From contig OY740781.1 in the NCBI GenBank assembly GCA_963514005.1, positions 178,064,001 to 178,128,000 on the forward strand: DNA of 64,000 bases, in the 5' to 3' direction. The notes below the pieces were generated by a model. The model worked only from the letters and a program-made list of their open reading frames with translations. It did not search any database and had not been told where the DNA came from. A program made the position numbers and the translations under genes. This DNA comes from Raja brachyura. Taxonomy: Eukaryota. Shown here in pieces: positions 58-63,922 of this stretch (positions are counted from its first letter, which is position 1; every line of letters starts with the position of its first letter).

Positions 58-185
58 GTTTAAGAAGGAACTGCAGATGCTGGAAAATCGAAGGTAGACA
101 AAAGTGCTGGAGAAACTCAGCGGGTGCAGCAGCATCTATAGAGCGAAGGAAATAGGCAACGTTTCGGGCCGAAACCCTTCTTCAG
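58..185 (-). mobile_element. Penelope-like terminal-repeat insertion with hammerhead core (158-185)
   Basis: Minus strand reads CTGAAGA A GGGT TTCG GCCC GAAACGTT; 10-bp TSD AACATCTCCT at 48-57 and 186-195. Confidence 0.8.
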
Positions 186-325
186 AACATCTCCTATTTG
201 GTATAGCTTGCAATTCCAAATACACCCAGAAGGTGGCAGAAAGACTCCATGACAACATTAACATTTCTGTATTGCAAAACCCCTATCTGCTGATTTGCCT
301 AATTCCAAAACTTTGGTTCATAAAT

Positions 326-1885
326 CATTGGAGCAGATTTAGGCCATTCGACCCATCAAGTCTCCTCTGCCATTCAATCAATGCTGATCTATCTCTCCCT
401 CCTAATCCCCATAACCACTGACACCCGTACTAATCAAGAATCTATCTCTGCCTTAAATATCGATTGACTTGGCCTCCACAGCCTTCTGTGGCAAAGTATT
501 CTACAGATTTACCACCCACTGACTAAATAATTCCTTCAAATCTCTGAAAAGGTGCGTCCTTTTTTTCTGAGGATATGCCCTCTGGTCCTAGATTCTCAGA
601 CCATTGGAAACGACCTCTCCATGTCCCCTCCATCCAGGCTTTTCACTATTCGGTAAATTTCAATGAGTTCAGGTTTAATTCAATCATCTCCAGGATCTTT
701 ATCGTAAACCTCCTCTGGACACTCTCCAATACCAGCACATCCTTCCTCAGATATGGGACATGGATAAACTGCTCACAATACCCCAAATGAGGTCTGACCA
801 GTCCCTTATAAAACTTCAGAATTACCTCCCTGTTTTTTTGTATTCTAGCCCTTTCGAAATAAATGCAAACATTCCATTTGCCTTCCTTACTGCCAATTCA
901 GCTAGCAAATCAACATTTTGGGAACCCTGCACCAGTGCTACCAATCCCTTTGCACCTCTTTTTTTATGAATCTTCTCCCCAATTACAAAATAGCGTACGC
1001 CTGTATTCCTCTGCCAAAATGCATGACTGCTCTTTGCTACGCTGTATTCCATCTGCCACGTCTTTGCCCCCTTCTACCCAACCTATCCAAGTCCTTCTGT
1101 AGAGTCCCTGCTCTATACACTACCCTGCACCTATCTTCTTATCGTCCGCAAACTTGGCCACAAATTGCCTCGTCCAAAGCGATCTCCCCTTAAGAAAACC
1201 AGACTGACTTTGGCCAATTTTATCATGTGCTTCTAAGTACTCAGAAACCTCACCCTTTATAATGGACTCTAAAATCTTACTAAGTAGGCCCTGGCCTTTG
1301 GTTTCTCTTCCTGCTTCGCTCTCTTCTTAATCAACAGAGTGATATTTGCAATTTTCCAATCCTCTAGAACCACTCCTGATTCTTAAATATTCACCACCGA
1401 TGCCTCCACAATCACAAAAGCTACCTCTTTCAGAAATCTGGGGTGTAGCCACCTGATTGAGGTGACCTATCAACCTTCAGACCTTTCAACTTCCCAAGCT
1501 CCTCATTAGTAATAACTGTTCCAGTAACGTTTGCCCCAGACTCTCTTGAATTTCGGGCACGTTGCTGATGTCTTCCATCAGCCGTAAAGACTGACACAGT
1601 CTTCTTTCTTTATTTTGTATCTTTATTCCCCATTATCACTTCTCCAGCGTCATTTTCCAGCAGTCCTATGTGCATTCTTGCCTCTCTTACTCTATGTATC
1701 TGAAGAAACTCTTTCTATCCTCATATTATTGGCTAGCTTATCTTCATTTTTCTCTCCGTATTGCCTTTTTAGCTGCCTTCTGTTGGTTTTTAAAAGCTTC
1801 CCAAACCTCTAGTTTCCCACTAATCTTTGCAATATTATATGCCTTCTCTTTTAGTTTTATGCTGTCTTTGACTTCCACTTATCCT
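326..1885 (-). mobile_element. Decayed CR1-type LINE fragments
   Basis: Minus-strand peptides ([19 protein letters not shown]) match the CR1 ORF2 C-terminus seen at 10132-10728; 3'UTR-like sequence at the left end. Confidence 0.8.
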
Positions 1886-2064
1886 ATTTGAATATATTAA
1901 ATCCGTGAACCTCCATAGATTTCTTGGTTAGAGAGTCCTGAGAATGTAGACATTTCTTGTCGCCTCAGTCCCTTATTTTTAGACTTTAGTTCCTGAGCCT
2001 AAAAACCACAGGTGGCAGAAAGAACATCCTTGTATCTACCTTGCCATGTTATTCTTGTGCATAA

Positions 2065-2307
2065 AGGGCTGCACCTGACTACGGAGTGCTTGTCTGTACA
2101 GCGTTTATACGTTCTCCCCGTAACCTTCTCCGAGATTTTCGGTTTCCTCCCACACTTCAAAGAAGTACAGGCTTGTAGGTTAATTGGCTTGGTATAAGTG
2201 TAAATTGTCCCTAGTGTGTGTAGGATAGTGTTAATGTGCGGGGATCGCTGGTCGGTGCGGGCTTGGTGGGCCGAAGGGCCTGTTTCTGCTCTGTTTCTCT
2301 AAACTAA
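2065..2307 (+). mobile_element. 5'-truncated tRNA-derived SINE with CR1-like tail ending (AAACT)n
   Basis: Same body as the minus-strand copies at 11657 and 58215; tail GGGCCGAAGGGCCTGTTTC...CTAAACTAAA. Confidence 0.75.
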
Positions 2308-5300
2308 ATTACAGTAAAACTCTGAAAATCGTCAATCCGAATATTTGGAAACCGCAATGGTTCAGCATCTTGTTGAATTGCTGCTGTTTCCAGGACTTTT
2401 AAATTGAGTTTACGCACAGGTATCCACGCTCTCTTTAAATTCTCTGGCACCCCACTGCACTCCATTAAATACACTGGGGCACTGATTCCCAAAATCCATT
2501 GAAACTCCTACACGGTCTTGCTTCCCACAATCATTTTATACTCGCTGACTTTTGTTTCCTTTGTTTTCTTCAAACTCTGCTGGTTAACTGAAAAAAAATT
2601 TGTACTGATTAACCTCTGAGAACCGCAAATTAACAATGATTTGGTGTATTTATATGAGTAACATTCAGAAGTCCAGAAAATGTCTTAGTCTGGCATTACC
2701 ACAATCCAAGAGAGTTTTTCAAAATTGTGGCCTTCTGCAATCAAAGGTTTTATTCTGCAATGCACACAATGGAGTTGACGATTGATCTGCAGATTTAGAA
2801 TGTTTTCAGTAGCATTATTTGTAGTGTGTTCTTCCATCAGAAGGGAGATTCTGCTCTGAAGAAGAGACAATTTGGAGACGGGATGAAAGACCAGTGTTCC
2901 AAATACCTCTTTGTTTATCAAGAAATGTGGGTGCCTTTGGTTGTGTTCGAGTACAATAGCATTTTGTTTCACGTGGGTTTTGTACTGTGGGAAATACTGA
3001 AACCAACCATGCTCATTGCCTTTTTAATATCCTTTCAGTCAGATGAGCCAGTGTTAAGCATTCCAAGATACTTGATCACACTTGCCCAATGTATTTCTCA
3101 AATTTAAAATATATGATTTAAATGACAGCATTGTAGATCTTATCACAGATTTCATCTTGTGGAGCACACAATTGCTAGTAATCTCCAATCTAAGTTTTGG
3201 GAAACTTTAAGCAACTTTGCCAGTTAGTGTCTGGCTAACAAAAGCACTCGGACTACTGTCATTTTCAGCAGTTTCATCCAGTGGTCTGTCGGCATACATG
3301 ACAAGCAATGTCGGTCTTTGAAGGATTTTTTTTAATGGACATTTTTCTATTAAAACAAACGTCGCCCATGAGCATCAGCAAAATGAAGACTTTCTTGCAT
3401 TTGAGAATGGGTTATCATGGATTAGTGTATTATTCTGAAAGTACAGACTTTGATTCCATACTGAGTTTATAACAAACTTGCATGATTAAGATCGCCAAAC
3501 TAAATTGTGTTGCATTAATTAACTTATTACTGCAATTATTTGATTTGGAACCTTCAGAGGTGGTAAAGGAACAAGTAAACCTTTATAGGACTGTAGTAAA
3601 ACGTGCTTCTTATTTATCTGATAAGATCACAGGAGTTCTACTTTTTTCAAAAATATGGAATGGTTATAGTACACATAGTCATTTGACACATCAGTGGTCT
3701 GTAGGAGGAATCTATTTAGTCTAAGACCTCCATGCTCCTAAACTCTTGCCAGCAACTTATTTTGAGACAGTTACCCATCTCCCTTTGTATGCAACAATTG
3801 AGTTTGTTTCTAGTAATAATATCACAATTTCAAACCCTAATTACTCAATTTGAATTTTATTAAACTATTTTAGTTTTTATTAATTGCCTTTTTTGCGTAT
3901 TATCTGGTTCTCGATCTTTCTGTTAAAGAAAACACCTATCTAATCACTAATCTAATCAGATTCATCCAATCTCCTCTATTCAGAGAGCAACCTAGCTTCT
4001 CATTTTTTACCTCTTAACTAATATATCCCCTCACTGAAATCAAATTTGTTACACCTTTCTGCATGCTTCTAATGCCTTTGCTTCTTTCCGCAAGAGTGTT
4101 GCTTAGAACTGAACACGATAGTCCAGATGTTGAATTAGTTATATATCACTCAAATACACCTGGACCATTTCCGACACTTTCTAGGAGTAGCCTCTTCACT
4201 GATAAGTATGTCTCCTTACACTAAGGGATGCACTCCAAGTTGCCAGCTATGGCATAATGATGGAGTTCTGTCACTACTGGGGCACCCATTGAATGAATGT
4301 CGCAAAAGCTGCAAGCAGTATTGCATGCGGTTTTTGTGGTGGACTCTGGATGTAGGAAAGTGTTTCAACAATCTAATTGTTTCTGAAGGTGCATGGTTAA
4401 ACCGGCACAGAGTGTCCTTTTAAATTGCAAACCAAGCAACAAATTAACACAATGTGCTAATAATTCCACTAACACTGTTTCGCAGCAGTTTTGGTGTGGT
4501 GTTTCCTCCTTCAATTTCAGTTGGTATGGGGAAAATTTAATGTTAAGCAAATGATGCTGTCATTTGGTGAAAGCCTGAGGTTGAATATGTGCCAAGTCCA
4601 ATTTAATATTGGGTGCAATTTCAATCGGAAATGACCTCCAACACGGCACACTTCAGATAAAATGGAAATTGAACTTTGTACTGTTGAAGCAATAGGTGCT
4701 ATCTAGGCTTTTGTACATACAGATGGCTGTAAAGTAAATACTAGTTAGGAAGAATTAAAAAATATTATTTTGCTCAGTAGTACATCCAATTTAGTAATAT
4801 TTTGTAATTGATTTGGCCCAATCACTTTCTACCTTTTGTGACTTAAATGGTTTGCATTCCTGTTTCAATCTTGTATTTAAGAGTGTTACAGAAGTTTCAA
4901 ATAAAAATAGCAAATGCTGGAAACTCTCAGCAGATTGGATGGCCACGGTAGAGAGAGAAATGAAGGTAATGTTTCAAGTTAATTACCTTTCACTTGTTGT
5001 GAACCAAGTATTTAACATTTCCACAGCTCGTGGCACTTTTCTGGATTTCCACTTAAATAGCATACACAAAAATGCAAGCATTCACGCATCAGTTTGTGTT
5101 TTAATTCTTCCCATTGTATTGTAATAATCCAACAGTACTGCACGCAAATTAGATAAAAATTTGAGAAATTAGTGCAGAAGAGGAAAGCAGGACAATATTT
5201 TACGCAGGATAGTCCGGGGCTTCGAGTCGTATGGTTTGTGTTCTGAATATTACCAAAGTTCAGAAATTCTCGTATAACTTCCCTCTTAAAGTTATCGTTT

Positions 5301-5710: not shown

Positions 5711-7855
5711 TAACAAATGGCTTGGGACATTATGTTCGATCAGTTGCTCAAATAAACAAAAAAAATGATAAACTTGACTAGCCATGCAACTATATAATTG
5801 TTCAATTATATTTTTCACTACATTTAATTCTCTGGTGTTGTTACATGTGTGTGTTTGTTCATTTTGTTTTAGTTGCAACCTGTTATCTGGACTCTTTGTT
5901 TTGATTAAAACAAAGAATTACAATTCTACGGGTCTCTTACTGACGTTCACAGTGATAATATTTGTGGCACTTGAAATAAAGATGAGAGGAAATCCTATTT
6001 TAATCCTGAGTGATGAAAAATAAGATTTGTTCTCTGCTTTCACTCTATTCATGAGTTAAATGCACCTGCATGTGATAGATTTGGGTCATTGAGTTGCCTT
6101 GAAACACAAGGCAATGTAGGAAGGGCGTGGTTCAAAATGAAAATCTTTTGTTCAAAAGAATGGATATATTAAACTGTCTTTATTTTGTAAAGTTAAAATT
6201 GATTTTTTATTCATAAATTACAGAAAGGAATAATATATTCTTGACTGTCCTGAGTAAATATTATATTGTGTGGCTTGTGCATCATTTAGAATTATCCCAG
6301 GCCTTTGTTACTTATTCGATTAAACTTGGCCTACAAGCAATAAGTTCAAGCTCTTGGTTTTTCAATCTTTTTTTAAAGATCTTTTCAGCCATGTACGGCA
6401 TTGCAATTGAAAGAAGGTTATGGTGTATTAATCATATAGCCAAAGTGTAAAGAAGTAGTTAACATTTCGAGGTACTTTTATGAATAGCTCCTAAAGGTCA
6501 ATGCTGGTTTAACAAATAATTTGATTGTATGCCTTTCTGCCCTGTTCTTCTGTTTACTTCATATTAGTATGTTATCAACTTTGGAGCATGTGGAAAGCTG
6601 AATGGGACAAACGGTGTTGTTTATGCTAACAGTTTTTGAGAAATGTAGTCCACTTCTTTCTTCAACCTAATTTTATTGGTAAAGTTAATGCCATAATGTT
6701 GCATTAATAGCACAGATTCTAATTTCCACCATATGCAAAAATACATTGTGGGTTTACATAACTGTCTTGGCAAATATGTTTTAAAAATACATCAATGGTA
6801 AAATGTAAGTTGAGCCGCAGAAGTCGAAAGGAGGAGAAATGATCAATAAAAGCAGACAATGAAGAGGTTTTAAGGATTTTAAGGTAGATAAAAAGAGGTG
6901 GAGAAAAGCTTAGGAAGGGAAGGAAAACAAAGTTTGCTAGGGGATGGGGAAGGACAGATAGAATGTGATAAAAGCAGCTGCTTTTCTTACCGACTTCAGA
7001 TTTAAGCTTGGAGTTGAATTTTGAAAGCAAAGGAAGTCAATGATAGGCACAGAGAGAAAAGGTGATGGAGAGGCAAGGTTGGGAGAAAGTAGGTGGTTTT
7101 ATAGGGAAGGAAAGATGATTACGGTTTGATGAGTGTGCACAGCCATTTTGCATGTTGTAGTGTATTCAGAATTTTATTTGGGAACATGGCCACTGCTGGC
7201 GAGGCCACAGATACAATAAAGAATCTGCCCTGTTACCTGTTTCTGAAATCTGACTAAATAGGAACAGGAGGAGGTCACTGGCCCATCACGAAAGCACCTG
7301 CCAGTCAACACGATTGTGGCTGATCAGTCCTAGGCTTCTTTGTGGCTTCTGTGCTAGTTCCCTGTGACCCTCAGTTTTTTGGCCTTTCAAAAATGCATTT
7401 ATTTTTTTAAATGTCCCCATGATGTAGCCTCCACAATCGCGTGGCGTAGAAAATTCCAGAGATTCACTATCCTCAGTGCAATCTTGTAACTATGCCTTTT
7501 AGTTTGCGATTCTCTCAGGAGTGGAAACATCTCCGCAGCTGCCCTGTCTCTGACCCGTGGGATTTTAAATGTTTTGGTAAAATCACCCCGTTGAGCATAA
7601 AGAGTTAAATGAAGCTGTTGGATACTGTTGATTAATGTGAACAGCATTGGTTGAAACCAATTATGGTCATTCTTCTGACTTGTAAACATTGCATTCTGCA
7701 TGTTATGGGTTTTATTTTGTTGCATTGCCAGTAGCCATTTTTGTGTGAAATCTCTACTTGCCAGGTAAACCTTCACAAGTACAAAATAAAATAATGCCAG
7801 CATGGTCTAAATTTACAAAACTTTAATCCATTTATTGTTTTTAAAGGAACCTGTA

Positions 7856-7948
7856 ATGGCAGAGGCACAGGCTAGAGATTCTGCAGCTGAAATTCCTGTC
7901 ACCAGCAATGGAGAAGTAAGTGATTCACAAGAGGAACGTTTTAAGTGG
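7856..7948 (+). CDS. ARFIP1: Arfaptin-1, first coding exon (MAEAQARDSAAEIPVTSNGEVSDSQEERFKW); exon starts about 7847 with a 9-nt 5'UTR part
   Basis: Acceptor tttattgtttttaaAG ends at 7846, ATG at 7856, 31 codons, donor GTATGA at 7949. SAAEIPVTSNGEV matches the vertebrate arfaptin-1 N-terminus as I recall it. Confidence 0.93.
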
Positions 7949-8241
7949 GTATGAATGCATTTTTTGTATTTATTGTTTGTATTTATTATGCATAGCATAA
8001 CACCAGCTGCACTCTTACTTGGCCACTGATAATATTATGTCCTGTACCAGATCCAAATTCTGACATTCATCCATGTTAACAAGCGGTTCCCCACTTTTTT
8101 GTCTCCATTATTTGTCATGTAGACTTAGTCTGCAATTCCTTTGCAATCTTTCCTCTCTTTAAATACATATTTCAGTCTGATTTTGGCTAGATTTGAAATG
8201 GTCCATATGTACAGCTATTCAATTAATTGGTTTTGGGCATT

Positions 8242-8345
8242 TGGGTCTGAAGGAGGGTGTCAACCCAAAACGTCACCCATTCCTTCTATCCGGAGATGCT
8301 GCCTGTCCCGATGAGTTACTCCAGCATTTTGTGTTGACCTTTGGT
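8242..8345 (+). mobile_element. Penelope-like terminal fragment with degenerate hammerhead
   Basis: TGGGT CTGAAGGA GGGTGTCAACCC AAAACGTC ACCCA, followed by the family tail GATGCTGCCTG...TTACTCCAGCATTTTGTG. Confidence 0.7.
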
Positions 8346-9965
8346 GTTGGGTATTGTCTTATACCCAAAAATAAAAAGCTCTTCAAATCATATAAGATTT
8401 GTTTTTAGAATAGAAGAAATGTGAATGAGAGAGAAGTTTTATTTGTACAATGCAGGAGGTAATAACAAATAAATAGTAAAGGTTGATGAGGGCTTTTCAG
8501 GCCACACCTTATGTAAGGAAGCGGACAACTTGGGTGAGGTAGATCTTGAGATGAAGTTGATATGTGTGTGTGCTTCAGGCCTGGATGAGGCAGTTTCCCC
8601 CCTCCTTTTATCCTTTATTGTCTCATGAGGTTGATCAATCTAATCCCACTCCACCATTTACATAGGAATCCAAAATGAATAAATTAATGTCTGCCACCTT
8701 AAGCAATAGTGGTTGGTGATTTGTATAATAGTGGTTTGTACATGGTACTGGAACTTGTGCTGAGGGCAAGGCCAGGAATTATTGCTGGCAATGATGATGC
8801 AAGTGATTGAGCTAAGGGAGGGCTCACTCAGTGGCATAGAGAAGGGAGAAATTAATTCCCGCACTTCTGTGGTAAATGGAGATCGACTGATTTTCACCCA
8901 CGTTGTGATGTAATGAAGGCCTGGAACTGAGTTGAGAATAAAATTAGAAGCTTGGGCTAAATTAAAATTCAAGGTGATTTTGGCTATTAATTAATGGAAT
9001 TGGTGAAATATCTTTCATTGATCACATTATTAATTTAAAATATAATAGACTTGTTCCTTAAGTGACCCATACTAATAAAGAACTGAGATTTGTGTGGTCC
9101 CTGTGGTCGATGAGCACTTTGAGAAATAAATTATTGTTTTTTTTTAATTTACCAAGCTGACACTCATGAACTGCATTCTAGTTGGAAATATTGAAGGACC
9201 CTTTAGACTAAAATCAATGGAGTGCATTTTGTTGGCGTGATTATTATTTATACTTTTTCATTATGTATGCTTCAATTACATGAAGCAATGATACCTTAAT
9301 TTTCTTACTCTTATGAGTCTGAAAATACATACATAGCACACATAGTCAGAAACAGGAGCAGAATTTCGATTGACCTCTTAAGTCTGATAATGTCTCACCA
9401 GAGGCAGAGAGCTGTGCAGCCACATATTGACTTATGAGAAGTGCCAAGAGCCTTCAAGGCAGTTTTTGATCTTGCCGGAAATGTACTATGCAACAAAGGA
9501 GGATGTAAAATTGAGTTTGTATGAAAAATGGTGCCTAAAGTGGTTAGCTGTAAAAACAATTAGATAGATTGATTTACACCACATTGTTCACTGTTCTTCC
9601 CAATCCCCTTCCTCATCTCATTCAGTCTAAACCATGCACTGTTTGCAGTTTAGATGTTCTCAATTTCAATTAATCTTTTGCAAGCTAATAATTACAATTC
9701 ACTTTGTATTAATTGATTTTCTTTACGGTTTCAAATTTAAGCACTAGATAACTATGGAACTGTGATTTAAATAACTAATGGAAACTGGTCTGCAGAGTTA
9801 AGCTATTTGGTTATGATTAGGCAAATTAAAGATGCCGCCTTTCTATATGCTGGATATGTGGTAAAATAATGATTGGACATTAGATTAATAATTTAAAATA
9901 AATTGTTATGACTACATTTTTATGATTGGTCAAAGAACTTTGACCAATGGTTTAAATTGCCCATA

Positions 9966-10871
9966 GCTCACTACAGATCTAATTTGTTTTGTGCGGAGCG
10001 TGCTATGAGAATGCAGGGTGACTTGGACAGGTTGGGGGAGTGGGCAGATGTATGGCAGATGAAGTTTAATGCGGATAAATGTGAGGTTATCCACTTTGGT
10101 AGCAAAAACAGGAAGGCAGATTACTATCTAAATGGTGTCAAGTTGGGTAAAAGGGGAAGTACAACGGTATCTGGGGGTCCTTGTACATCAGTCTATGAAA
10201 GTAAGCATGCAGGTACAGCAGGCAGTGAAGAAAGTGAATGGCATGTTGGCCTTTATAACAAGAGGTATCAAATATAGGAGCAAAGAGGTCCTTCTGCAGT
10301 TGTACAGTGCCCTAGTGAGATCACACCTGGAGTATTGTGTGCAAATTTGGTCCCCTAATTTGAGGAAGGATACTCTTGCTATTGAGGGAGTGCAGCGTAG
10401 GTTTACTAGGTTAATTCCTGGGATGGCGGAACTGTCATATGCTGAGAGAATAGAGCTGCTGGGCTTGTACACTCTGGAGTTTAGAAGGATGAGAGGGAAT
10501 CTCATTGAAACATGTAAGATTGTTAAGGGCTTGGACACACTAGAGGCAGGAAACATGTTCCCGATGTTGGGGGAGTCCAGAACCAGGGGCCACAGTTTAA
10601 GAATAAGGAGTAAGCCATTTAGAACGGAGACGAGGAAACACTTTTTCTCAGGGTGGCGAGTCTGTGGAATTCTCTGCCCCAGAGGGCGGTGGAGGCAGGT
10701 TCTCTGGATGCTTTCAAGAGACAGCTAGATAGGGCTCTTAAAAATAGCTGAGTCAGGGGATATGGGGAGAAGGCAGGAACGGGGTACTGATTGGGGATGA
10801 TCAGCCATGATCACATTGATTGGCGGTGCTGGCTCGAAGGGCCAAATGGCCTACTCCTACACCTATTGACT
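9966..10871 (+). mobile_element. 5'-truncated CR1 LINE (RT C-terminus plus 3'UTR)
   Basis: WQMKFNADKCEVIHFG, LVRSHLEYCVQIWSP, VQRRFTRLIPG and SRTRGHSL motifs with frameshifts; TSD ATTGCCCATA at 9956-9965 and 10872-10881. Confidence 0.92.
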
Positions 10872-11082
10872 ATTGCCCATAAAGTGGTGGCAGTGAACTG
10901 CTGCAAATTAGAGAAACCTAACACTGAAAAAAAGGTCAGTTAAAGAAATGAATGAGAAATGGATGGCCAGAGATCGAATGAAATCAGGTGGTTAAAGATT
11001 TTTTTAAAGTTACTGTGATTGGGGAAGGGAATAATAAAATTGCAACAAAAAAAAATATGATTGAAATATACAGAATTTTTTT

Positions 11083-11446
11083 TTTTGAGGAGGTAACAGG
11101 CAGGATGGACAAAGGAGAGTCAGTAGCTGCTGTTTACTTCGATTTTCAGAAGGTCTTTGATAAACTGCCACACGTTATGCTATTACCAGTAAACAAGATA
11201 GAAGCCCGTGGTATTAGAGGCAGATTGGCTGACTGGCAGAATGTCAAGAGTGGGAATAAAAGAGTCGATGGATATTGTAAATATTTTTCGGTTATTTTTT
11301 AATAACCAAGGGAGAGATTCTTGAATAGTATGAGTGTCAGGGTTTATGGGGAAAAAGGCAGGAGTATAGGGTTAAGAGGAAAAGATAGATCAGCCATAAT
11401 TGAATGGCAGAGTAGAATGGCCTAATTCTGCCCCTACACTTATGAA
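11083..11446 (+). mobile_element. CR1 LINE fragments
   Basis: FFEEVTGRMDKGESVAAVYFDFQKVFDKLPH RT motif plus a 3'UTR piece. Confidence 0.8.
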
Positions 11447-11656
11447 CACGAACTCGAGCAGCATTCCACCTTTTTAAGCTGCGATATGAAGTACGAATTC
11501 AAGTGTTTTGTAGCTCTGTTCTGAAGATTTTTCATTTAAAAAATACTTGCAATCTAAAAGCTTTTACTCACCTAAGGTAAATAGATCTTGTCATTACCGG
11601 ACTAATTGGCTAGCATGCAATAGCCGATCTACAGATCTGTAAATAGTAAAATCTCA

Positions 11657-11955: not shown

Positions 11956-12171
11956 TAGCTATTCACATGAATCCCCTTTAGCATGTTTCTGTATACAGTG
12001 GATGGCTGACTAGTTAACATGCAACAAAGGCTTTTCACTGTACTTCTGTACACGTGACAATAACCTAAACTAAACTAGCTCGAAAATCGACTAGTTAACA
12101 GTGCAACTTGTCTGTAATTATGCTGCTGGCCTTGCCAAGGCAGCATGAGGTGTAAATGGAGTAAATAGAAG

Positions 12172-51735: not shown

Positions 51736-54248
51736 GTAAGTTCTCTATTCTTAAATATATCTACCAGCTTAGCCATTTAAAAAGTAATCAGTTGTGAGAC
51801 ATTCCAGTTGCACCTCCAGATATAGAACACAACACTGTCAGGTATTTGCAGTTAGAATAATTATGTTCCAGTTAGAAACATTCAACAATACATTGATTTC
51901 CCTAATGGTGCAGCAGAAATTCACTGACAGCAAATGCTCAAGCTACCTTACACATTACCTGCATAAATTGTTGATAGGTGGCCTCTATTACAACAATTCC
52001 ATTTTTTTTTTTTTAACTGCACATTTCAGGTGATTATTCTCTTGCTTATATAAAAATTGTGGGGGAACATCTTAAAGCACAAAATGACATACATGAGCCT
52101 GAAAAGTAACTAAGGTGTTTGATACATATGCATTCTAACCACTGACCTTCCCCTTTTTAGATGACTCGGGCAAATAACTTCAATTAAACCATTTGATTTA
52201 GTGTGGTGACATAGTTTCATTCTTGAGAAAGGATTAGTTGGGGAGAATTTTAATTCACTTTTTTTACCCAGAGACATACAGTTTGCAGCAGATCTTGAAG
52301 CTCTGCTTCTGGCAGGTGGCTGACCTTTAAATTTAATATAGAGATTGATTTCCTTATTGGTTCTGATGCCTGCTTTTTTATTGAATTTCCTTTCAAAATC
52401 CCTTGAGGCAGTTCTACTTTATGGTATGTAATCAGAATGTGAAATGACTATTCATCCCATATATGCCCTTCCTCCAGGACTCATCCCCAGATTCCTATTA
52501 TTTAATCTGCCTTCACAAGAATTAAATTTTTACGGTTTCATGTGTTTGTGTTTGTGTTGCCACCAGCTGAGATTTTGTCCAAAAATTAATGGAATGCTGG
52601 ATCTTATCTAGGTTCGATCTGACGGATAGTAGAATTCAGACGTCTATTGTTTGGCTGAAACCATGTTATACTAAACAATCTCAATTTTCTTTCTTCCTGC
52701 CTGTATTAGCTTACAGCCATCCATGCAATATATTTTCCCTTGGTCTGTGTACTTCAGTATATAACTCCACTTTTATCTACACTGGACACGTGCCAAGTTT
52801 ACATTGCAGCTTGTCAACTTTTGTTAAACCGTTCCCATGAAGTGATGCTGCAGCATCAATTCTTGCAAGGATTAAGAAGCTATGTGGATCTATGATCAAC
52901 TTGGTTTCACTCCAGATGATAATTGACTCTTTTCAGTGATCAGTCATATTGAAGTTACTACTTCCTCTTCAGACTTTCCCAAATAGATCTGTCATTCAGC
53001 CAAACCTTGAACTTAATACATGAGTTGGATTTTGACCAAGTTGTGCTCAAATGCACTAACTGATGCCTTTTGTTGAATACTTTCGCATTCATCAAGGGAA
53101 TTGATAGGCTTATACATGCCCTCACCTCATGAACTGAATTTAAGCAATACTTTCCTCCTCTTGCATTACTGGCTTTACTCCGACAATATTTTAGACTTCT
53201 CCTGCTCGCATCTAACCTCATTAAACGTCATTGTTTGGTGACATTCATCTCTGCACCATTAATATCCTTCCACATTAACCCCCAACCTAACTCCATGCTA
53301 CTTGGGTATCTTGCTCCTGGGTATCTTGTTCTCTTACATCACATCCACTCCCTTTCCACAGGCACATCTTGTTCCTTCCTAACCACATTTTCAAAACTTT
53401 TGTCTTTAATTTGTTCATCATAGTCTTATCAGCACCCGTGCCATCTCCTTTAATTATTGCACCAGCTCCAACCTTGCCAACATGTCCAGATGTGGTGTCA
53501 ATATATCCCACCACACCCTATTTAAAAGACCTGAAATTTAGTTTTCCATATGGTTTACAGCACCTGAAATCATCTAACCTAAGTCACCTTTGATTATTTT
53601 TCAGGCCTTTTAATTTCCTGTGGTTGTTTTTTCGCAGCTTTTGATAGGATTGATCCCAGTGACCTCGCTCGACGTCCTCTCGCGCTGTTGTAGAATTTCC
53701 CAAACCAATGAACACACAGCAACCAGCGGCTTCTCCCTATACAGTCTATGCTTCTCTTGGACTTGTCATGTTCTTGGCCCTCTCATGTGTTGCTCAAACT
53801 AAATATATAGATTCATGAGTTTGGGAGGTCATTTACTGCCAATAATGTACTTTTATTTTAAGAGACCTAATATTGATAAGTACGGGGAGTAGCTACAACA
53901 AATGCTTTCAACATTTAGGGGCACCTTTCGAATTTGCCCTTTCACCTTGATTGCTCCGATTCATAGCTAATATCCAGAATTTCTCCGAGATTATTAGCAA
54001 AACTTAAGCCACCTTATCTTCTGCACTCTTCTCTAAAATAACACTATTCTGCAGATGTTATCTGCAGAAATTGTCATCAAATAAGTAATCATTATTATCC
54101 ATATTTGTGTCCTTTTGAGTTCAACCCCAATGTGTTTTAAGTAGAAAAATGGAGTGGAGAATATTTACTGTTGTGCCCTCTTTAGGCATTGCATTGATCC
54201 TTCTGATATTCATTTAATTTATGTTGAATTTCATTCTCTTTGTTTCAG

Positions 54249-54406
54249 GAAGAGTTTGGATACAATGCTGAAACTCAGAAATTGCTCTGTAAAAATGGGG
54301 AGACGTTACTTGGAGCAATTAATTTTTTCATTGCCAGTGTGAATACATTGGTGAACAAAACTATTGAAGACACGTTAATTGCTGTAAAACAATATGAAAA
54401 TGCCAG
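54249..54406 (+). CDS. ARFIP1: Arfaptin-1 exon 6, AH/BAR domain ([53 protein letters not shown])
   Basis: tttcAG acceptor, 158 nt, phase 0 to 2, GTACAC donor. [20 protein letters not shown] is ARFIP1-type. Confidence 0.97.
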
Positions 54407-55129
54407 GTACACGATTTGTAACATGCAACTAACACCCTAAATAACCAATTTAATTTGGTTAGAGCATTGAATGATAACTTTGCAGTTGCTGTTAGTAACA
54501 TCATGCTTTTCACAGTAGCAATGTAATTTCTATTCATTTAATGTTTATGGGAGTTATTTAAGTTAAAAAAATGTGGTCACCTATAATCATGACAAATTAC
54601 TTCTCAAATTGATTTTTAAAATTGCGTTCCAATCTAGCTTAATCAGTAGAAATGTCCTATTCTGCATATTTACTACAGTTATCCAAAATGGGTGTTGCCT
54701 TAATGAAGTGGATACTGACAACATAAAGGAAATGAAAGGCAGTGGATTAGAAATTGTGGCAGAATTCCATGGCCACCTCCCCCCATCACCGTATCCCTAA
54801 TGCTAGTAGCAATATTTTGTTATTCATACAGAGTAGACCAAAGTGTGTTTATACAGGATAAAATAAGCCTTTGAATGCTTGAGAAAAAGGTTATTCCAGA
54901 ATTTCAGAGGAAATAGGTTCAGCTGCAGTGGACGATTGATGAGATGGAGGTAGGATCATTGGGGGGGTGGAGTGGGAAGAGGATTAAATTGGAGTATAAA
55001 GCAGGGAGGTATAGCAAGTATGAAGTCAGATTCAGAGGAATCGGCAGGAGGGCGATTGGTGGGAAATACTGAGTCCAGGTATGATCAGAAATGATCAATG
55101 GTCTGAGAGTATTGGAGGCCATTTGGTAT

Positions 55130-55900
55130 TAGAGTCACACAGCTTGGAAACGGGCCCTTTGGCTCAACCTGCCCACACCAACCAACTTGCCCCATCTACA
55201 CTAGTCCCACCTGCCTGCGTTTGGCCCATATCCCTCTAAACCTGTCTTATCTATGTACCCGTCAAAATCTTTCTTAAACCGTGCGATAGTACCTACCACG
55301 ATTACCTTCACTGGCAGTTTGATCCATTGACCCACCACCCTTTATGTTTAAAAAAGTTCTCAATCCCCCCAATCTGGGCAAAAGACTCTGCATGTACCCA
55401 ATCAATTCTCCTCATGATTTTGAGTACCTCTATAAGATCACCCCTCATCCTCCTGAGCTACAAGGAATAAAGTCATAATCTGCTCCACCTCTCTCTATAG
55501 CTCAGGCCCTTGAGTCCTGGCAATATCCTCGCAAATCTTCACTGCATCCTTTCCAGCTTGACAACATCTTACCTATAACATGGTATCCAGAACTGAGCAC
55601 AATACTCTAAATGTGGCCTCATCAATGTATAACTGCAACCAGACCTCTCAACTTCTATACTCAATACTCTGATGAAGGCCAATGTGCCACAAGCCATCTT
55701 GATCACCCTATCTATCTGTGACACCACTTTCAAGGAAGCTTGCACATCGACCCCTCTACTCGGATTGATAGGGCACTCCCTAGAGCCCTACCAATCCGTG
55801 TGAAGATCCTGCCCTTGTTCGACCTCCCAAAATGCAACACCTCACAATTTGCTGTTTTAAATTCCATTAACCATTCCTCAGCCTACCTGCCCAATCGATC
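55130..55900 (-). mobile_element. CR1 LINE 3' part, interrupted by a Rex1 insertion and resuming at about 57150-57245
   Basis: AGAGTCACACAG...GGCCC tail; GTGTCATCTGCAAAC (FADDT on the minus strand) after the insert. Confidence 0.75.
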
Positions 55901-55902
55901 AA

Positions 55903-57147
55903 AATGAATGAATGAATGAATAAGTTTATTGGCCAAGTATTCACATACAAGGAATTTGCCTTACTGCTCCGCCCACAAGTGACAACATGACATACAGTGA
56001 CAGTTTAGAATGATACATAAAACATTAAACATTAATAATAAAACATTATTGATTAAACATGTGAATTAAAATACCAGAGCAAAAGGAGGCTACAGATTTT
56101 TGGTTATTGAGTAGAGCTACTGCTCGTGGAAAAGAGCTGTTGTTATGTCTGACTGTGGCAGCTTTGACAGTCCGGAGTCGCCTTCTAGAGGGAAGTGATT
56201 GAAAGAGTTTGTGGCCAGGGTGAGAGGGGTCAGAGATGATCTTACCCACTCGCTTCCTGGCCCTTGCAGTGTGCAGTTCGTCAGTGGAGGGAAGGTTGCA
56301 GCCAATAACCTTCTCTGCTGATCGGACGATTTGCTGCAGCCTCCAGGTGTCGTGCTTGGTGGCTGAGCCAAACCAGACCATGATGGAGAAGGTGAGGACA
56401 GACTACGATGGCCGTATAGAATTGGACCATCATTGCCTGGCAGATTGTGCTTCCTCAAAAAGTACATCCTCTGCTGTGCCTTTTTGACTGTGGAGTCGAT
56501 GGTAGCCCCCCACTTAAGGTCCTTGATGATGGTTCCCAGGAACTTAAAAGACTTCACATATGTGACTGTGGTGTTGTTGATGGTGAGTGGGGTGAGGGGA
56601 GGGGGAGGGGGAGCTCTCCTAAAGTCTACAATCAATTCCACTGTCTTAAGAGCATTGAGCTCCAGGTTGTTGTGATGGCATCAGGACGCCAGCTGTGACA
56701 CTTCCTGTCTGTACGCAGATTCCTCCCCATTCTGGATCAGTCCACTCGGGGGTTGTTGTCTGTAAACTTGAGAAGCTTGACAGAGGAGTTAGTGGAGGTG
56801 CAGTCATTGGTGTAGAGGAGAGGGGAGAGTACGCAGCCTTGCGGTGCTCCTATGCTGAGGGTTTGCCGGTCCGAGTTGTGCTTTCCCAGCCTCACATGCT
56901 GCTTCCTGTCTGTCAGGAAGCTGGTGATCCACCGACAGAGGGGTTCAGGCACAGTCAACTAGGAAATTTTGCAGTGTAGTAGCTCTGGCACAATGGTGGT
57001 GAATGCAGAGCTAAAATCAACAAACAAAATCCTTACATAGATCCCCTGGCGCTCTAGATGCTGGAGGATGAAGTGCAGGCCCAGGTTGACTGTGTGATCC
57101 ACAGATCTATTGTCCTGTTATGCAGACTGCAGAGGGTCCAGCAGGGG
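55903..57147 (-). mobile_element. Rex1/Babar-type LINE, 5'-truncated, (ATTC)n tail
   Basis: GAPQGCVLSPLLY, ELIVDFRR, KKAQQRMYFLR and DPSHPGHKLFQSLPSRRRLR peptides; ATGAATGAATGAATG tail. Confidence 0.88.
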
Positions 57148-58002
57148 GATATCCAAAAATATCTGGCTACACTTTTTAGCAACCATCTTCCCCATCTACA
57201 ATACCACCCACTTTAGTGTCATCTGCAAACTTGTTAATCATGCAAAACTAATCAAAGGAGATCTTCTCTTGGATACCCTACCAGTGAACTGTGTAAGATT
57301 GGGCTTCCTTTAACCTAGGAGGATGCAGGCCACAATTCCGCATGCATGTTGTACACATGGACAAAAATCCACAAATGCAGTACCGTGTCATAAATGCCCC
57401 ATCGTATTTAACTTCTGGTGGTGTACCATAGGTAGCTCTGTGTTAATACTTTAACATGTCAGCAATTTTCTCTGTTTATAATCTAAATTCTGAGGTATGA
57501 TTACATTTCTGCTCCCCGATCTGATGGAGTTTGAGGATCATCCAGTTAATGATTTTGCTTGACCAGGTCCTTGATGTGCTGCATTCATCAATCTTGATGT
57601 TGACCATTAGGTTATCTGCAGTGTAGTTGCTCCGAGCTTGAGTTATAATCCATAGTTGATTACTGGAAATGTTTTTCTTTGGAAATACATAATCGCAGCA
57701 AATTCAAGCTTTTATGAGCATTTCAAAGCACCTTGATGATGCAACCTTAAGATAGAGCTTGAAATATATTGAGTAATACTAGAGGTGAGTTTTAGTCTTC
57801 TGTGGAAAGGATAATGTGGGTCAGTTTTATTGTTCATGTTGATCATGAAAGTATTGTTCATGTTGAGCAAGTTCTTTTTTTCCACTGTCAGTTTGTTTTA
57901 AGTGATTTGTGATGGCTTTGAAGTGGCCATATTATTCTCAGTAGACCGAGAACATTTTTAATGTTTATATCATATTAAACATGCTTTATTTTAAAACTTC
58001 TC

Positions 58003-58214
58003 TGTAGAGAAGGAATGGGTGACGTTTCAGATCGAGACCTTTCTTCGGACTGATGTCCATAATGGGTGACGTTTCGGGTCGAGACCCTTCCTTCGAAATA
58101 TCCTGAAAAAGGACATGTGTCTGAAGAAGGATCTCAACCCGAAACGTCACCCATTCCTTCTCTCCAGAGATGCTGCCTGTCCCGCTGAGTTACTCCACCA
58201 TTTTGTGACTATCT
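58003..58214. mobile_element. Penelope terminal-repeat cluster with three hammerhead-like motifs (two tandem minus, one plus)
   Basis: AATGGGTGACGTTTC at about 58014 and 58061, and CTGAAGAAGGATCTCAACCCGAAACGTC at 58121-58148. Confidence 0.75.
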
Positions 58215-58393
58215 TCACCCTACAAACCTGCACGTCTTTGGAATGTGGGAGGAAACCAGAGCACCTGGGGAAAACCAATGCGGTCACAGAGAAAACATAC
58301 AAACTCCGTATATACAGCAACCATAATCAGGATCAAACCTAGGTCTCTTGGCTGTAAGGCAGCAACTCTACCGCTATGCCACTGAGCGCCCGT
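58215..58393 (-). mobile_element. tRNA-derived SINE 5' half
   Basis: Minus-strand A box TGGCATAGCGG and B box GGTTTGATCC. Confidence 0.75.
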
Positions 58394-58429
58394 GACATTT
58401 GGGAAATCTGTACAAAAGTTGAGATCATT

Positions 58430-58925
58430 TCTGGAGAATTGTGTGCAGTTCTGGTTGCCATACTATTGGAAGGATGTGGTTAAGCTAGAGAGGGTGCAGA
58501 AAGATTCCCAAGTATGTTGTCTGGGCTGAAATACGTGGGTTATAAGGTGGGACTATTTTCCCTGGAGTGAAAGAGGCTGAGGAGTGATCTTATAGAGGTT
58601 TATAATATGTGCTTTGCAAGAAGGATGATCACAGTCTTTTCCTCAGGGACTGAGTCTAAACTAGAGGTACAGGTTCAAGATGAGAGGGAACCTGATGGGC
58701 AAATTTATTCAGAGTCTGATGCTTATGGTGAACAAGTGGCAGAAAGAAGCAGTGAAGGCGGGTATAATTATAACATTTAAAAAGCATTTGGATGGGTTCT
58801 TGGACTAGAACGTTTCAGGATATGGGCCAAATGCAGGCAAATCGGACCAGCTCAAAAAGGGACCTTGGTCAACATGGATGAATTGAGCTGACGAGCCTCT
58901 GTTTCTGCTGTATAACTTGATTGTA
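58430..58925 (+). mobile_element. Old CR1 LINE 3' part
   Basis: LENCVQFWLPYYWKDVVKLERVQ remnant plus 3'UTR. Confidence 0.8.
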
Positions 58926-60473
58926 TGTTCATTCGCTCTCAAACAAGATCCTTACCATCCATTATATCTCTGGCTTAGACAGAAACAAAAGGTAGTCAGT
59001 ACTTTCCTTTAAACTGATTGACCTACTGACTTTACAGTGTGAACGGTATCAGTATTTTGTTTCACCAGGACTGTGACCAGTGGTGTCCCACAGGTAGATC
59101 ACAATGCTCTCACTACTTCATTAAATCCGCAATGTCACCCGTCCTGTAGTTAAATCTCTCCATGACCTCAAATATCACCTTTCCAGTTATGCCAGTCTAT
59201 CCAGTTTCTTTTTGCCCAGTCTATTTATTTTCTTTTTATCCAGTCTATCTCTCTTTACCCATCACCTCTGCCCCAGTTCACCCACTTCCCAACAAAACCT
59301 AGACCACCTGAAGTGCTCCATCGCTCCGGGGATCTGTAAGACGCTTGTGGGCTTTCCTTTTAGGTTGTAAGCCATCCCGACTTAGAAATACATCACCGTT
59401 CCTTCAATGGTTGCTGGATCTAAAACCTAGAATCCCATAGCCATGGACATCTTTGGAGCAGCTTTATTGGCTCAGAAGAGACTCCTCACAAGCCTCTCAA
59501 AGCCAATTTGTTATTGATAATAATTGCTGCTCTTGCTACTAGGCCCATATCAAAAAAACAAGTGAATAGCTTTTAAGAAGAGACCTCCTAAATAATACTT
59601 TTGAACATCTTAATAATCCCTTTATTAGTCACGCACTGTTTTGTTTAGCCTCTCAGGAATGAGATCATCCTTGAGATCATCCAAAAATCACATTCTAGTA
59701 TTTTAAAAAGGGAAAACCAGTCTGTGATCAGGAACCTTATTATTTTCTTTCTTCCTACCTCTGAAAACTCGCATCACCATGATGGTGCTCCTCCAAGTGC
59801 CAGCTGCAATTTGCTACTGCAACATGGTTTGATTGTTCCTTCCCAGTAGATACTTGCTGAACCAGTTGGAGAAAGCCTCAATCAACAGCAGCCCACTAAA
59901 CAAATACCATTAATCCTCAGCAGCGTTGTGCATTTTATGGAACATAAATGAAAACATTAACATGCTACAATAAAATTTTGGATTTTGGGGTGAGTTTGCA
60001 AAGTTGGTGCAAAGCAAATGTTTTGCATCATTGCAACAACGATCAAAGTTTGCGGCTTTGGTAAATAAGTACAACTTGTCCTTTTTTTAAAGAGCTAAAT
60101 TTTAATTGAAATGTATGCTACATTATGAACAGCACGTTTTCTTTTGGCACTGGCCATACCTGTATGATGTAACCACTAGTAGCAGGTCAGCACAGTACAA
60201 GACGTTGTCTCAGATATTTAAAATACAATGATTGTAAAGCACATTCAAAGAATGAGGACTGTTGCTGTTTCCTCTGAGAAAGCGTAGCACATATAGCACT
60301 GTTTTTGTCTTGTAAGTATTGGAGATACTGAGTGTATTGCATTTTATCTATATACTATTGCTGTGGCTTTCTTAAGAAAATAGCTTATTTTTATTTGTAA
60401 TTTTAAATGCTTTTTAACTGCTTTGTAACAGTAATTTTCTTTGTATAACATTGTTCCATGTTTTGCACCACAG

Positions 60474-60648
60474 GATAGAATATGATGCGTATCGAACTGA
60501 TTTGGAAGAATTGAACCTTGGCCCTCGTGACGCAGTGACAATTCCAAAAATTGAACAGTCCCAGCAACAATTCCAGATTCACAAAGAAAGGTTTGACAAG
60601 CTTAGAACAAGTGTGTCAATCAAACTGAAATTTCTGGATGAAAACAAG
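60474..60648 (+). CDS. ARFIP1: Arfaptin-1 exon 7, AH/BAR domain ([19 protein letters not shown]...KLKFLDENK); final exon expected beyond the window
   Basis: cacAG acceptor, 175 nt, phase 2 to 0, AAG|GTATTT donor; conserved arfaptin sequence. Confidence 0.97.
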
Positions 60649-60694
60649 GTATTTTATGAAACTGTTATCTTGTATGAGACTGATCAAATCTTAA

Positions 60695-61485: not shown

Positions 61486-61677
61486 GGGTACACAAAAGGC
61501 TGGAGAAACTCAGCGGGTGCAGCAGCATCTAAGGAGCGAAGGAGATGGGCGACGTTTCGGGTCGAGACCCTTCTTCAGACCTTTCCTTCGCTCCTTAGAT
61601 GCTGCTGCACCCGCTGAGTTCCTCCAGCCTTTTGTGTACCCTCGATTCTCCAGCATCTGCAGTTCCTTCTTTAACAC
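61486..61677. mobile_element. Young fold-back Penelope terminal insertion with intact hammerhead core (minus, 61551-61578)
   Basis: 60-bp inverted arms at 61484-61543 and 61584-61643 with one mismatch; perfect 14-bp TSD TATGGACACACTGA at 61472-61485 and 61678-61691. Confidence 0.88.
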
Positions 61678-61796
61678 TATGGACACACTGATCTATTTTG
61701 AAGCCAATGCCTACTATGTTCTGTTGTGCTAAGTAAAGAAATAATTTCATTGTCCTGTCAGGGACACATGACAATAAACTCTTTTGACTTTGACAA

Positions 61797-62170
61797 ATAA
61801 TGAGTTGGATTCATGGGAGGTGGTCTTGGAGGGGAGGATGCTCCTCAAACTGCGGAGGATCTTGGACAATGCAGCTCACCCCCTCCATGTCACACTGGTC
61901 AACATGAGGAGTACCTTCAGCAACAGACTGGTTCCACCAAGATGCAGTACAGAACCCCACAGGAGATAATTTTTCCCTGTGGCTATCAAACTGTACAATT
62001 CCTCCCCCTTCTGTCATGGGGTAGACTGGCTCCTTCCCCCACCTCCCCAATCTTTGCACATCCCCAATCCTTTTCACTCATCACTTTAATTTCATGTATA
62101 TTATGTTTTATGATTGTTGGCAGACTAATTTCCCTCCTGGGATAAACAAAGTTCTATTGTATCGTATCAT
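61797..62170 (+). mobile_element. Rex1-type LINE 3' fragment
   Basis: ILDNAAHPLH...STFSNRLVPPRCSTE peptide; (TATCG)n-like tail. Confidence 0.75.
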
Positions 62171-63782
62171 AAATTGATTTTCACAATCTCACAAATGTGA
62201 CTAGAAGTCGATGTTTCCTTAAAATAAAGGCAACAAACACTGGCAGAACTAAATAGAAACCAAACTAACTTTACCCGAAGACTTATTCCATGTTGTTCCA
62301 GAAGTGTGTCCTTTGTTTCATATCAGTATAATTGTATTTATTCTTTCTGCTGTATCCATTGGATGGGACGTAGGGAAGGTGGAGGAATCTAGGACAGGTT
62401 TTTAGTGGTGATGATATAGGGTAAGACATAAACTAATATCTGTAAATTGCGTAACCATTTCAGAGCAATGTGCGAATTGGGCTGTGATACCTGTAATTTT
62501 ATGACAGATGGCAGAGGATGTGTCTATTCAACAGTAATTTGTCAAAAGGATAGACTGTTGTCATGTACGTGACAAAAGTGGAACACTTTTCTCCCAAGTC
62601 TTGAATTGTTAACATACACAAGTGTCTGAATGCATATATTTAGGGGGGGCAATGGATGGATGGGTGACAAAGTACCGTACCTGATTTATCTGCTTTACTG
62701 GTCAAAGGAAAACCAGTTGGTCTTCTATCCCTGCGCATAAAGTTTAGGTTACCTCACTAATACAGCAGATGTGACAGAAGTCAGCAGACACCATACATAA
62801 TACTGAAACTGAAGGCGACCAATCTGTTGGTTTTCAGGGGCAAAACACTCCAGCATGTAAGATTGTTTTGTAGATCAGCCAGTTATTGAACATCCATTCT
62901 GAGAACCAGTTGATGTTTTAGGTCAATGACCTTTCAGTAATCTCTTTTTAAAAAGTCAATGACCTGGCATTTTAACTGATGACCCACCGAATAGTTATAG
63001 CGTTTCTTTTTTTTAGTTCGGACTTGCAGCATCTGCGGAGTTTTTGCTTTTCACTCCTTTAAGTAGCATGGCTTTTGGAGAAATTGGGTTAGTAAAACCT
63101 CTTGTGTGAGAACTTTTTTCAGATCAGTGTGACTGAAAATAACACTGGATAAATTGTAGGCATTGCTCCACTATTGGCATCATTTGAAGAGTTTTGCATC
63201 AGTTATAAAGGGCTAAGGCAAATGAAAACGTTGCCAGGGCATCAGAATTTTCCAGAGATGTAAAACGTGATACAATATTGCTCCGTTGTGGGTTAGATCA
63301 ATTTTCAACTGCACAGTACTATTGGTTGTTTGTGCAAATCAATTTCAAGGCTCTTGGACAATCCAGTTGGAAAATCATAAGATATAATTTTAGCTATAAA
63401 ATTGAACACATTGCTTTCATATTACACATAGATTTGCTTACTGTTCTTGAATTTTGTTTTGATGCTAATAGTTGCTTTGCTTGTCTTAAAAGAAGCAACT
63501 TTTCTGATCTCTTTGTATGTACAATGTCAATGATGAGTCCATGAACATCCATTCAGATATTGTTAAAAAGCTACTTCCTGCCCCAATCCAAATCCAGCTG
63601 AACTACTTCTATTGAAAATCAATGAAAGGGATCTTGACCTTGTATTTTGTGTTAACCAACATTAGCTTCCTATTCTCACCCAGCCTCTATAAATTCCCTC
63701 TAGCCCAGAAATGTTAACCCTTCACTCCCCTTATGCAAAACATGAACTACTTGTGCTGCAAATTGGACTCATTATCTCAGTG

Positions 63783-63922
63783 TTTAAGAAGGAACTGCAG
63801 ATGCTGGAAAATCGAAGGGAGACAAAAATGCTGGAGAAACTCAGCGGGTGAGGCAGCATCTATGGAGCGAGGGAAATAGGCAATGTTTCGGGCGAAACCC
63901 TTTTTCAGTTTCGGGCCTAAAC
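63783..63922 (-). mobile_element. Penelope terminal insertion with degenerate hammerhead
   Basis: Near-identical to 58-185; 13-bp TSD CATTATCTCAGTG at 63770-63782 and 63923-63935. Confidence 0.85.

Follow-up and report, generated by a model that had tools for sequence, protein, structure and literature searches.

Short hammerhead-bearing insertions in arfaptin-1 introns of Raja brachyura as likely terminal fragments of a Penelope-like element

Hammerhead-bearing ends of Penelope-like elements (PLEs) are known to abound in animal genomes, and the short repeat family considered here, found in introns of the arfaptin-1 gene of Raja brachyura, is in itself ordinary. All copy counts and densities given below come from one 64-kb stretch of this skate's DNA (64,000 nucleotides of contig OY740781.1, called the window). 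As far as the cited parts of published accounts go, the 3' end of PLEs may bear an optional tail of 30-40 nt (PMC8557442, PMC3846280), and in vitro work on the PLE of Anolis showed this tail to be the stretch between two internal start sites of reverse transcriptase (RT) (PMC11167929). Head-to-head inversions are a known trait of these elements (PMC3846280, PMC8557442), and their hammerheads cleave as dimers (Lunse et al. 2016, as cited in PMC6765202). In Penelope of D. virilis, the start site is followed after 46 nt by an intron of 75 nt, which extends to helix I (PMC2377424, PMC4209133). A survey of retrozymes, another group of hammerhead-bearing sequences, includes one cartilaginous fish (bioRxiv 10.64898/2026.07.22.740005).

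The value of the skate family lies in the natural experiment that it offers. At about one copy per 3 kb, as extrapolated from the window, the positions of its ends can be used to test two points in the PLE cycle: what sets the 5' end, and if RNA cut by the ribozyme ever serves as template. In the window, each arm of an inverted pair shows a different one of what appear to be the two RT start sites, and the 5' boundary is sharp and away from the cut site, which provides a modest lead on the PLE cycle. The dispersed insertions, with target site duplications (TSDs) at their edges, are likely dead-on-arrival cDNA stubs of the pseudo-long terminal repeat (pseudo-LTR) of a Neptune-type PLE, and self-cleavage does not account for their ends.

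The repeat family and its hammerhead motif

The hammerhead motif proposed in a preliminary description of this DNA had 9 matches with at most 3 mismatches in the window and none in 100 shuffles. A profile built from 11 copies gave 32 nhmmer matches at E<=10 (28 if the limit is E<0.05) and a single match (E=1.3) in the reversed window used as control; a covariance model search of the window returned 25 matches at E<=0.05. The merged matches form 21 loci covering 2,364 bp, or 3.7% of the window (about one locus per 3 kb), with copies of about 90-190 bases, and the high density reported earlier is thus borne out. All 15 insertion coordinates listed in the preliminary description carry a profile match, and six further loci were found at about 4900, 17495, 20518, 21467, 32661 and 35133. 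The listed copies are indeed family members; two of them depart from the earlier account of their content, as 50836 holds tail sequence only and 27875 reaches 98 nt upstream of CTGA. TSDs, which had also been described, flank nine of the 15 listed loci (58, 8242, 12172, 27875, 29278, 41851, 50836, 61486 and 63783) as repeats of 7-15 bp with 0-2 mismatches. That of locus 45460 is weaker and doubtful, and no TSD of at least 7 bp was found at the edges of loci 14853, 19083, 20620, 44140 and 58003. Among 400 random intervals, 1.5% had a comparable repeat at both edges.

The copies sort into at least four subfamilies (A-D) and two much older relatives. The latter, at 4900-4997 and 35133-35226 (both on the minus strand), have the same tail and an altered stem II, which suggests long residence of the family. 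In four other copies (17495-17525, 21467-21525, 27876-27900 and 32661-32721) the hammerhead is partly lost by internal deletions that fall between short direct repeats, e.g. GACCC or GTC. When further copies with flanks were sought elsewhere, there were no matches in viral contigs and none in metagenome contigs; prokaryotic genomes gave one match, lacking CTGA and the tail, which we take as chance.

A strict descriptor of the minimal type I hammerhead is satisfied by four arms (C3 at 185, 12263, 14853 and 61578), with 0.03 expected per shuffled window (30 shuffles). This supports the motif as described earlier at the level of sequence. The features typical of PLE hammerheads are present: an extra base after A9, the G10.1-C11.1 pair and a loopless palindromic stem III (15.2-16.2), the ACGT palindrome noted before. 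All 11 core bases are kept in only five of 19 aligned arms. Stem II is 4 bp long. The earlier statement that its pairing is preserved across subfamilies holds in so far as 93.7% of cells are paired, but the U-A to U-G change is one-sided, and covariation does not exceed that of shuffles; among the copies in the window, none of 12 stem pairs showed a compensatory change. Stem I amounts to only 2 bp in the unspliced sequence, its first pair being formed in 11 of 13 arms, the second in 8 of 12 and the third in 3 of 11, which falls short of a helix I of 4-5 bp, and most inserts lack its 5' strand. Four subfamily C arms (8242, 41851, 19115-19119 and 58115-58120) read TG(G/A/T)G ahead of TCTGA. By pairing with ACCCA past the cut site, this segment could lengthen stem I to 5 bp; it may represent a second allele of the upstream part, the end of an exon or a product of fold-back copying.

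When the core is compared with the rest of the repeat, differences between subfamilies affect one of 11 core columns (a CpG) and 18 of 52 downstream columns, a weak contrast. Private mutations, in contrast, hit both parts alike, at 11 of 138 (8.0%) and 65 of 674 (9.6%) non-CpG sites, respectively. The motif thus appears to be maintained in source elements and to decay neutrally in inserts, because subfamily differences spare the core and private mutations do not. Those subfamily differences that lie inside the motif concern loop II, the U-A to U-G change, C17 to U17 and A1.1 to G1.1, all of which are tolerated by hammerheads. Rfam searches found no hammerhead family in the window; there were five weak matches, three of them due to inverted pairs, and two matches in 27700-29500, both chance. 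Folding of whole copies was not significant in six of seven cases (z -0.06 to -1.41), while the deleted copy 27875 had z -2.62. The sole dimer-like arrangement in the window consists of two degenerate hammerhead pieces about 45 nt apart, at 57997-58096 on the minus strand.

Insertion ends and how they may arise

We express 5' positions relative to the core base C3, which places the predicted scissile bond at +28/+29, and count the seven TSD-bounded copies that are not inverted (14853, starting at -1, is left out as it has no TSD). Their starts lie at -1, -5, +1, -98, +6, -5 and +1, the last behind a duplicated piece of 14 nt. Hence, six of the seven begin within -5 to +6 of C3, about 28 nt upstream of the cut, a clustering in a zone of 11-12 nt with P ~1e-5 under a crude uniform null over 100 nt. 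Inverted pairs, too, have several arms with starts at -1 to -3. Shorter pieces would be detectable, since the profile search found fragments of 38 and 25 nt. The preliminary description had noted that several copies end within a few nucleotides of CTGA. It had further called the family ribozyme-delimited, which in the sense of cleavage is not supported: none of the seven copies starts at the cut, and it is the other edge of the core at which their 5' ends lie, where the 5' strand of stem I is removed. Because the ends pile up at the front edge of the core and none falls at +28/+29, they are not products of self-cleavage.

The same positions bear on the suggestion of a retrozyme-like unit, the ends of which would be cut by (dimeric) hammerhead self-cleavage, and which would move as small linear or circular RNAs. 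Although four arms have a strict minimal core, degenerate cores stand in tandem at 58003 and the start of the 61486 plus arm is close to the cut site, no tandem monomers were found: 14 tandem-repeat rows contained no array with a complete hammerhead in at least two consecutive units, and the cores at 58003 are broken. In addition to the absence of starts at the cut, stem I pairs beyond 2 bp in only three of 11 arms, and the Anolis PLE, in the cited part of that work, inserts without cleavage, uncut RNA being the main substrate (PMC11167929). We consider this reading largely refuted and give it very little credence.

At the other side of the insertions, 3' ends were measured from C3 to the TSD. 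In eight arms they fall at 89-94 nt (five arms), 77 nt (one arm, with a 15-nt deletion) and 124-126 nt (two arms), i.e. in two classes about 32 nt apart, matching, by analogy with the Anolis element, the optional PLE tail and two internal RT start sites. Six of the 15 listed loci (19083, 20620, 44140, 45460, 50836 and 61486) and the complex locus 58003 are inverted head-to-head, and 61486, 50836 and 44140 combine one short and one long end. Junctions at 63783, 44140, 45460 and 58003 jump back into stem II. The possibility that the tail is the start of an open reading frame was rejected; the subfamilies differ by indels, and thus the tail can be argued to be non-coding.

A more direct connection to PLEs is provided by coding remnants. 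The GIY-YIG remnant noted earlier at 17587 is real, with its start corrected to about 17549; being frameshifted and only about 60 codons long, it cannot be the mobiliser that it had been taken for, and marks only the family of the mobiliser. A second and better GIY-YIG remnant, previously unlisted, lies at 44027-44131 on the minus strand and has 16 protein matches at E<=0.001, seven of them with Pfam GIY-YIG (E<=0.1) and one an unrelated repeat protein; proteins matching this remnant also match the first one. Pfam itself matched none of three remnant pieces, a blastx search found nothing significant among the proteins compared, and no RT sequence was matched in the window, where the two short endonuclease (EN) remnants are the only PLE coding remains. 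Each of the two has a family fragment no more than about 25 nt away, in one case inverted and in the other on the same strand. Zones this close to a fragment make up 5.3% of the window, so that the joint chance is about 0.003. A Naiad-type reading (N-terminal EN) of the junction between the 44140 tail and EN was rejected, as the two are not separated by a linker and RT is found upstream in elasmobranch relatives.

With abutting GIY-YIG remnants, a 3' tail and TSDs, the Penelope-like origin put forward earlier is supported, and its variant of truncated Penelope ends fits. The family has the testable structural traits of solo terminal fragments of canonical PLEs with an endonuclease (EN+): a hammerhead in a pseudo-LTR, the optional tail of 30-40 nt, head-to-head inversions, TSDs of 7-14 bp and 5' truncation. 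We regard the link to PLEs as strong but indirect. The copies probably represent pseudo-LTR ends of the Neptune clade, an assignment made from the domain order of relatives and not from an RT tree; a CX2-5CxxC linker before the C-terminal GIY-YIG is present in relatives P0021, P0022 and P0024 and is not preserved in the window.

It could be asked whether the stubs propagate by themselves, as a non-autonomous family resembling short interspersed elements (SINEs), whose full-length minis have an internal promoter and, after transcription, are copied again in trans by the PLE protein. Such a family would have the uniform size, the several subfamilies (A-D and older relatives) and the density of about one locus per 3 kb seen here, it would account for a window nearly devoid of PLE coding sequence (two short EN remnants, no RT match), and an internal promoter is described in the cited part of work on D. 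virilis Penelope (PMC2377424). Nevertheless, upstream sequence belonging to the family is present at locus 27875 and in three other copies, EN remnants adjoin two fragments, and solo ends truncated at 5' are a normal PLE product, all of which makes this scenario unlikely.

Under the favoured origin as PLE cDNA stubs, and by analogy with the described part of the Anolis system (PMC11167929), an RT-GIY-YIG protein would nick the target and prime at one of two internal RNA sites, which in the skate family would lie about 92 and 125 nt downstream of C3. If both sites were used, each for a different strand, inverted pairs with a short end and a long end would result. Where the 5'-most copy of these sites is the one primed, RT would run off the 5' end of an uncut transcript and leave a stub of fixed length, like retroviral strong-stop DNA; rarer, longer copies may have the downstream pseudo-LTR or read-through RNA as their source. 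The hammerhead would be kept by selection in source elements and would not set the ends, being presumably non-functional in nearly all inserts. The uncut transcript is proposed to start at an initiator-like TCAGTCT, three bases ahead of the core. In the longer copies 27875, 21467, 58003 and 32667, (A)TCAGT stands ahead of CTGA behind a pyrimidine run, and TCAGTCT fits YYANWYY, which we take to be the initiator consensus. Arms 41851 and 44140 read G-AGTCTGA, as copying of a cap would give. In the longest copy, a GC-box-like run at 27836-27849 precedes the C-tract and stands about 30-40 nt ahead of the initiator-like motif. The run-off step is the least certain part of the model; given a PLE origin, we place it slightly below an even chance, and favour it over both an RT stall and a splice acceptor.

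A stall presumes the same PLE origin and would explain the 5' pile-up by arrest or dissociation of RT at the junction of stem I and the core, caused by RNA structure, a bound protein or fold-back of nascent cDNA, and followed by end joining or template jumps. The ends scatter from -5 to +6, at least four copies read through upstream and the junctions returning into stem II point to jumps. The predicted energy of the nascent-cDNA hairpin is lowest at the 5' edge of the core (-5.6 to -6.8 kcal/mol in two copies), but this hairpin is no more stable than in shuffles (z -0.8 to +0.15, six of six copies), and RNA structure should halt RT at its 3' edge, at about +30, where no TSD-bounded copy ends. 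Arrest of this kind is thus possible, with a chance well short of even.

The pseudo-LTR might also contain an intron whose 3' splice site forms the boundary (pyrimidine tract, CAG|TCTGA); in spliced RNA, a short exon end would then complete stem I. A pyrimidine run with CAG in 27875, 21467 and 32667, the possible pairing of TG(G/A/T)G with ACCCA in the four subfamily C arms, and the D. virilis intron ending at helix I in the cited part of PMC4209133 agree with this. A common exon 1 sequence longer than 5 nt is lacking, however, four arms start at -1 behind unrelated bases, the tract is C-rich and the middle base of TGNG varies. We find splicing improbable as the source of the boundary.

Several points weigh against the origin and run-off that we prefer. 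The link to PLEs rests on adjacency and anatomy, because the window holds no continuous stretch from a GIY-YIG 3' end through the 3' untranslated region to the hammerhead, and a protein search for read-through of the element found none among six candidates. The 5' boundary is defined by only seven clean ends in one window and was judged by a crude uniform null. YYANWYY occurs at 1.3% of positions, and the A at -3 needed by the cap model is found in only two of five short-start arms with G at -4. The contrast between core and rest in subfamily differences is weak (Fisher P=0.15, or 0.025 if the CpG column is dropped). Sister arms are mutual best matches in only two of six pairs (61486 clearly, 20620 marginally), the other pairs being old. 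Finally, the start of D. virilis Penelope, in the cited part of its description, lies 46 nt plus a 75-nt intron upstream and not at the core edge (PMC2377424, PMC4209133).

A broader and more tentative proposal is that solo hammerhead stubs in skate, and perhaps in many animal genomes, are footprints of a PLE 'strong-stop' intermediate; we consider it rather unlikely at present. RT would prime in the 5' pseudo-LTR and run off the capped start of uncut RNA, and full or tandem elements would arise when the stub jumps templates. If true, this would account for the huge excess of single motifs and would mean that the inserted template is not ribozyme-cut.

Host gene and features of the window

The earlier placement of the window in the ARFIP1 locus was correct. 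Pfam identifies the exon at 51499-51735 as Arfaptin, and the best named relatives of this exon are arfaptin-1 proteins of skates (99% and 97% identity). None of the repeat copies overlaps the six exons, and all 21 loci are intronic. Other features include an assembly gap of 132 N at 15098-15229, a Tc1/mariner-type transposase remnant at 40176-41077 on the plus strand (Pfam DDE_3, E 2e-12) and open frames at 9912-10725 (+) and 56049-56680 (-). The second of these frames matches Pfam PF09004 (E 2.9e-6), and the first has no good Pfam match; we take both to resemble 3' regions of long interspersed elements. Coordinates of the repeat loci are collected in Table 1.

Table 1. Repeat loci, PLE remnants and host exons in the window
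Feature	Position	Strand	Remarks
Six arfaptin-1 coding exons	7841..60675	+	Starts 7841, 26872, 47523, 51499, 54243, 60472
Locus 58	62..186	-	Subfamily A, intact core (C3 at 185), long 3' end; TSD 49-61 / 187-199
Old diverged relative	4900..4997	-	Covariance model E 1.1e-6; absent from preliminary description
Locus 8242	8242..8340	+	Subfamily C, short 3' end, start -5; TSD 8227-8241 / 8341-8355, 2 mismatches
Locus 12172	12172..12263	-	Subfamily C, intact core, short 3' end, 7-bp TSD; starts at C3, or at -1 if T is counted as common to copy and TSD
Locus 14853	14852..14948	+	Subfamily B, intact core, start -1, short 3' end; no TSD of at least 7 bp
Internally deleted family fragment	17495..17525	-	E 0.0074; inverted, about 24 nt from GIY-YIG remnant
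Frameshifted PLE GIY-YIG endonuclease remnant	17549..17725	+	tblastn E 2e-5 to 17704
Locus 19083	19076..19182	both	Head-to-head inverted pair, arms start about -1/-2, 5-nt spacer
Locus 20620	20518..20760	both	Old inverted pair 20619-20760 joined within stem II; 25-nt tail fragment 20518-20542
Copy with upstream C-run and ATCAGT ahead of CTGA	21467..21549	-	Internal deletion
Locus 27875, longest copy	27778..27952	+	98-nt pyrimidine-rich upstream part ends ACATCAGT; stem II deleted, short 3' end; 12-bp TSD 27766-27777 / 27953-27964
Locus 29278	29278..29363	+	Subfamily B, start +6, short 3' end; 12-bp TSD
Locus 32667, old copy	32661..32721	+	E 0.0038; TCAGT upstream, internal deletion
Old diverged relative	35133..35226	-	Covariance model E 1.1e-6
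Locus 41851	41851..41944	+	Subfamily C, start -5, TGAGT ahead of CTGA; 12-bp TSD, 1 mismatch
Second PLE GIY-YIG remnant	44027..44131	-	Directly after long tail of 44140 copy, same strand
Locus 44140	44145..44334	both	Old inverted pair; minus arm with long tail and GAGT ahead of CTGA; plus arm starts in stem II
Locus 45460	45448..45595	both	Old inverted pair; possible 12-bp TSD about 19 nt outside matches
Locus 50836	50836..50927	both	Inverted pair of tails only, 3' end short in one arm and long in the other; 12-bp TSD, 1 mismatch
Locus 58003, complex	57997..58215	both	Two degenerate minus-strand hammerhead pieces in tandem, then plus-strand copy
Locus 61486	61486..61677	both	Young inverted pair, arms 96% identical; 14-bp TSD; minus arm short-ended, its core intact; plus arm long-ended, start about 7 nt past cut site
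Locus 63783	63783..63922	-	Subfamily A, long 3' end; 13-bp TSD; starts at C3, behind 14-nt piece repeating stem II

Comparison with known systems

The literature searched, which did not extend to most subscription papers or to repeat databases (where the family is probably catalogued), contained neither an account of the skate family nor one of a 5' boundary fixed at the edge of the core. The closest motifs are the minimal type I hammerheads of PLEs (Cervera and de la Pena 2014, PMC4209133). In the parts of that study compared here, they share with the skate family the CUGANGA core with an extra base between positions 9 and 10.1, the G10.1-C11.1 pair and the loopless palindromic stem III, and they are likewise mostly single, dispersed and ascribed to truncated PLEs. 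Stem I has 2 bp in the skate family and typically 4-5 bp in those motifs (2 bp in D. virilis), the 4-bp stem II is a further difference, and insertion ends were mapped in the skate family, unlike in those parts of the study. Its examined text parts and supplements (supplement file 1 excepted) contained no cartilaginous fish.

Animal non-LTR retrozymes are, in the cited parts of their descriptions, also short and non-coding, with type I hammerheads and kinship to PLE terminal repeats (PMC7229834; bioRxiv 10.64898/2026.07.22.740005). They consist of tandemly repeated units that each carry a ribozyme (PMC7229834), whereas the skate copies are solo or inverted and TSD-flanked, with ends away from cleavage sites. 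Compared with Neptune-clade EN+ PLEs with a C-terminal endonuclease, as far as the cited part of their description goes (Craig et al. 2021, PMC8557442), the skate window has no full-length element and no evident microsatellite targeting. Poseidon of Anolis carolinensis (Frangieh et al. 2024, PMC11167929) belongs to a different clade, its open reading frame starts in stem II, whereas the skate tail is argued to be non-coding, and a fixed 5' boundary at the core edge was not found in the part of that report considered. In Poseidon, according to the same part, hammerhead cleavage is not required, and two adjacent RT start sites downstream of the hammerhead set the genomic 3' ends, features that the skate family appears to share.

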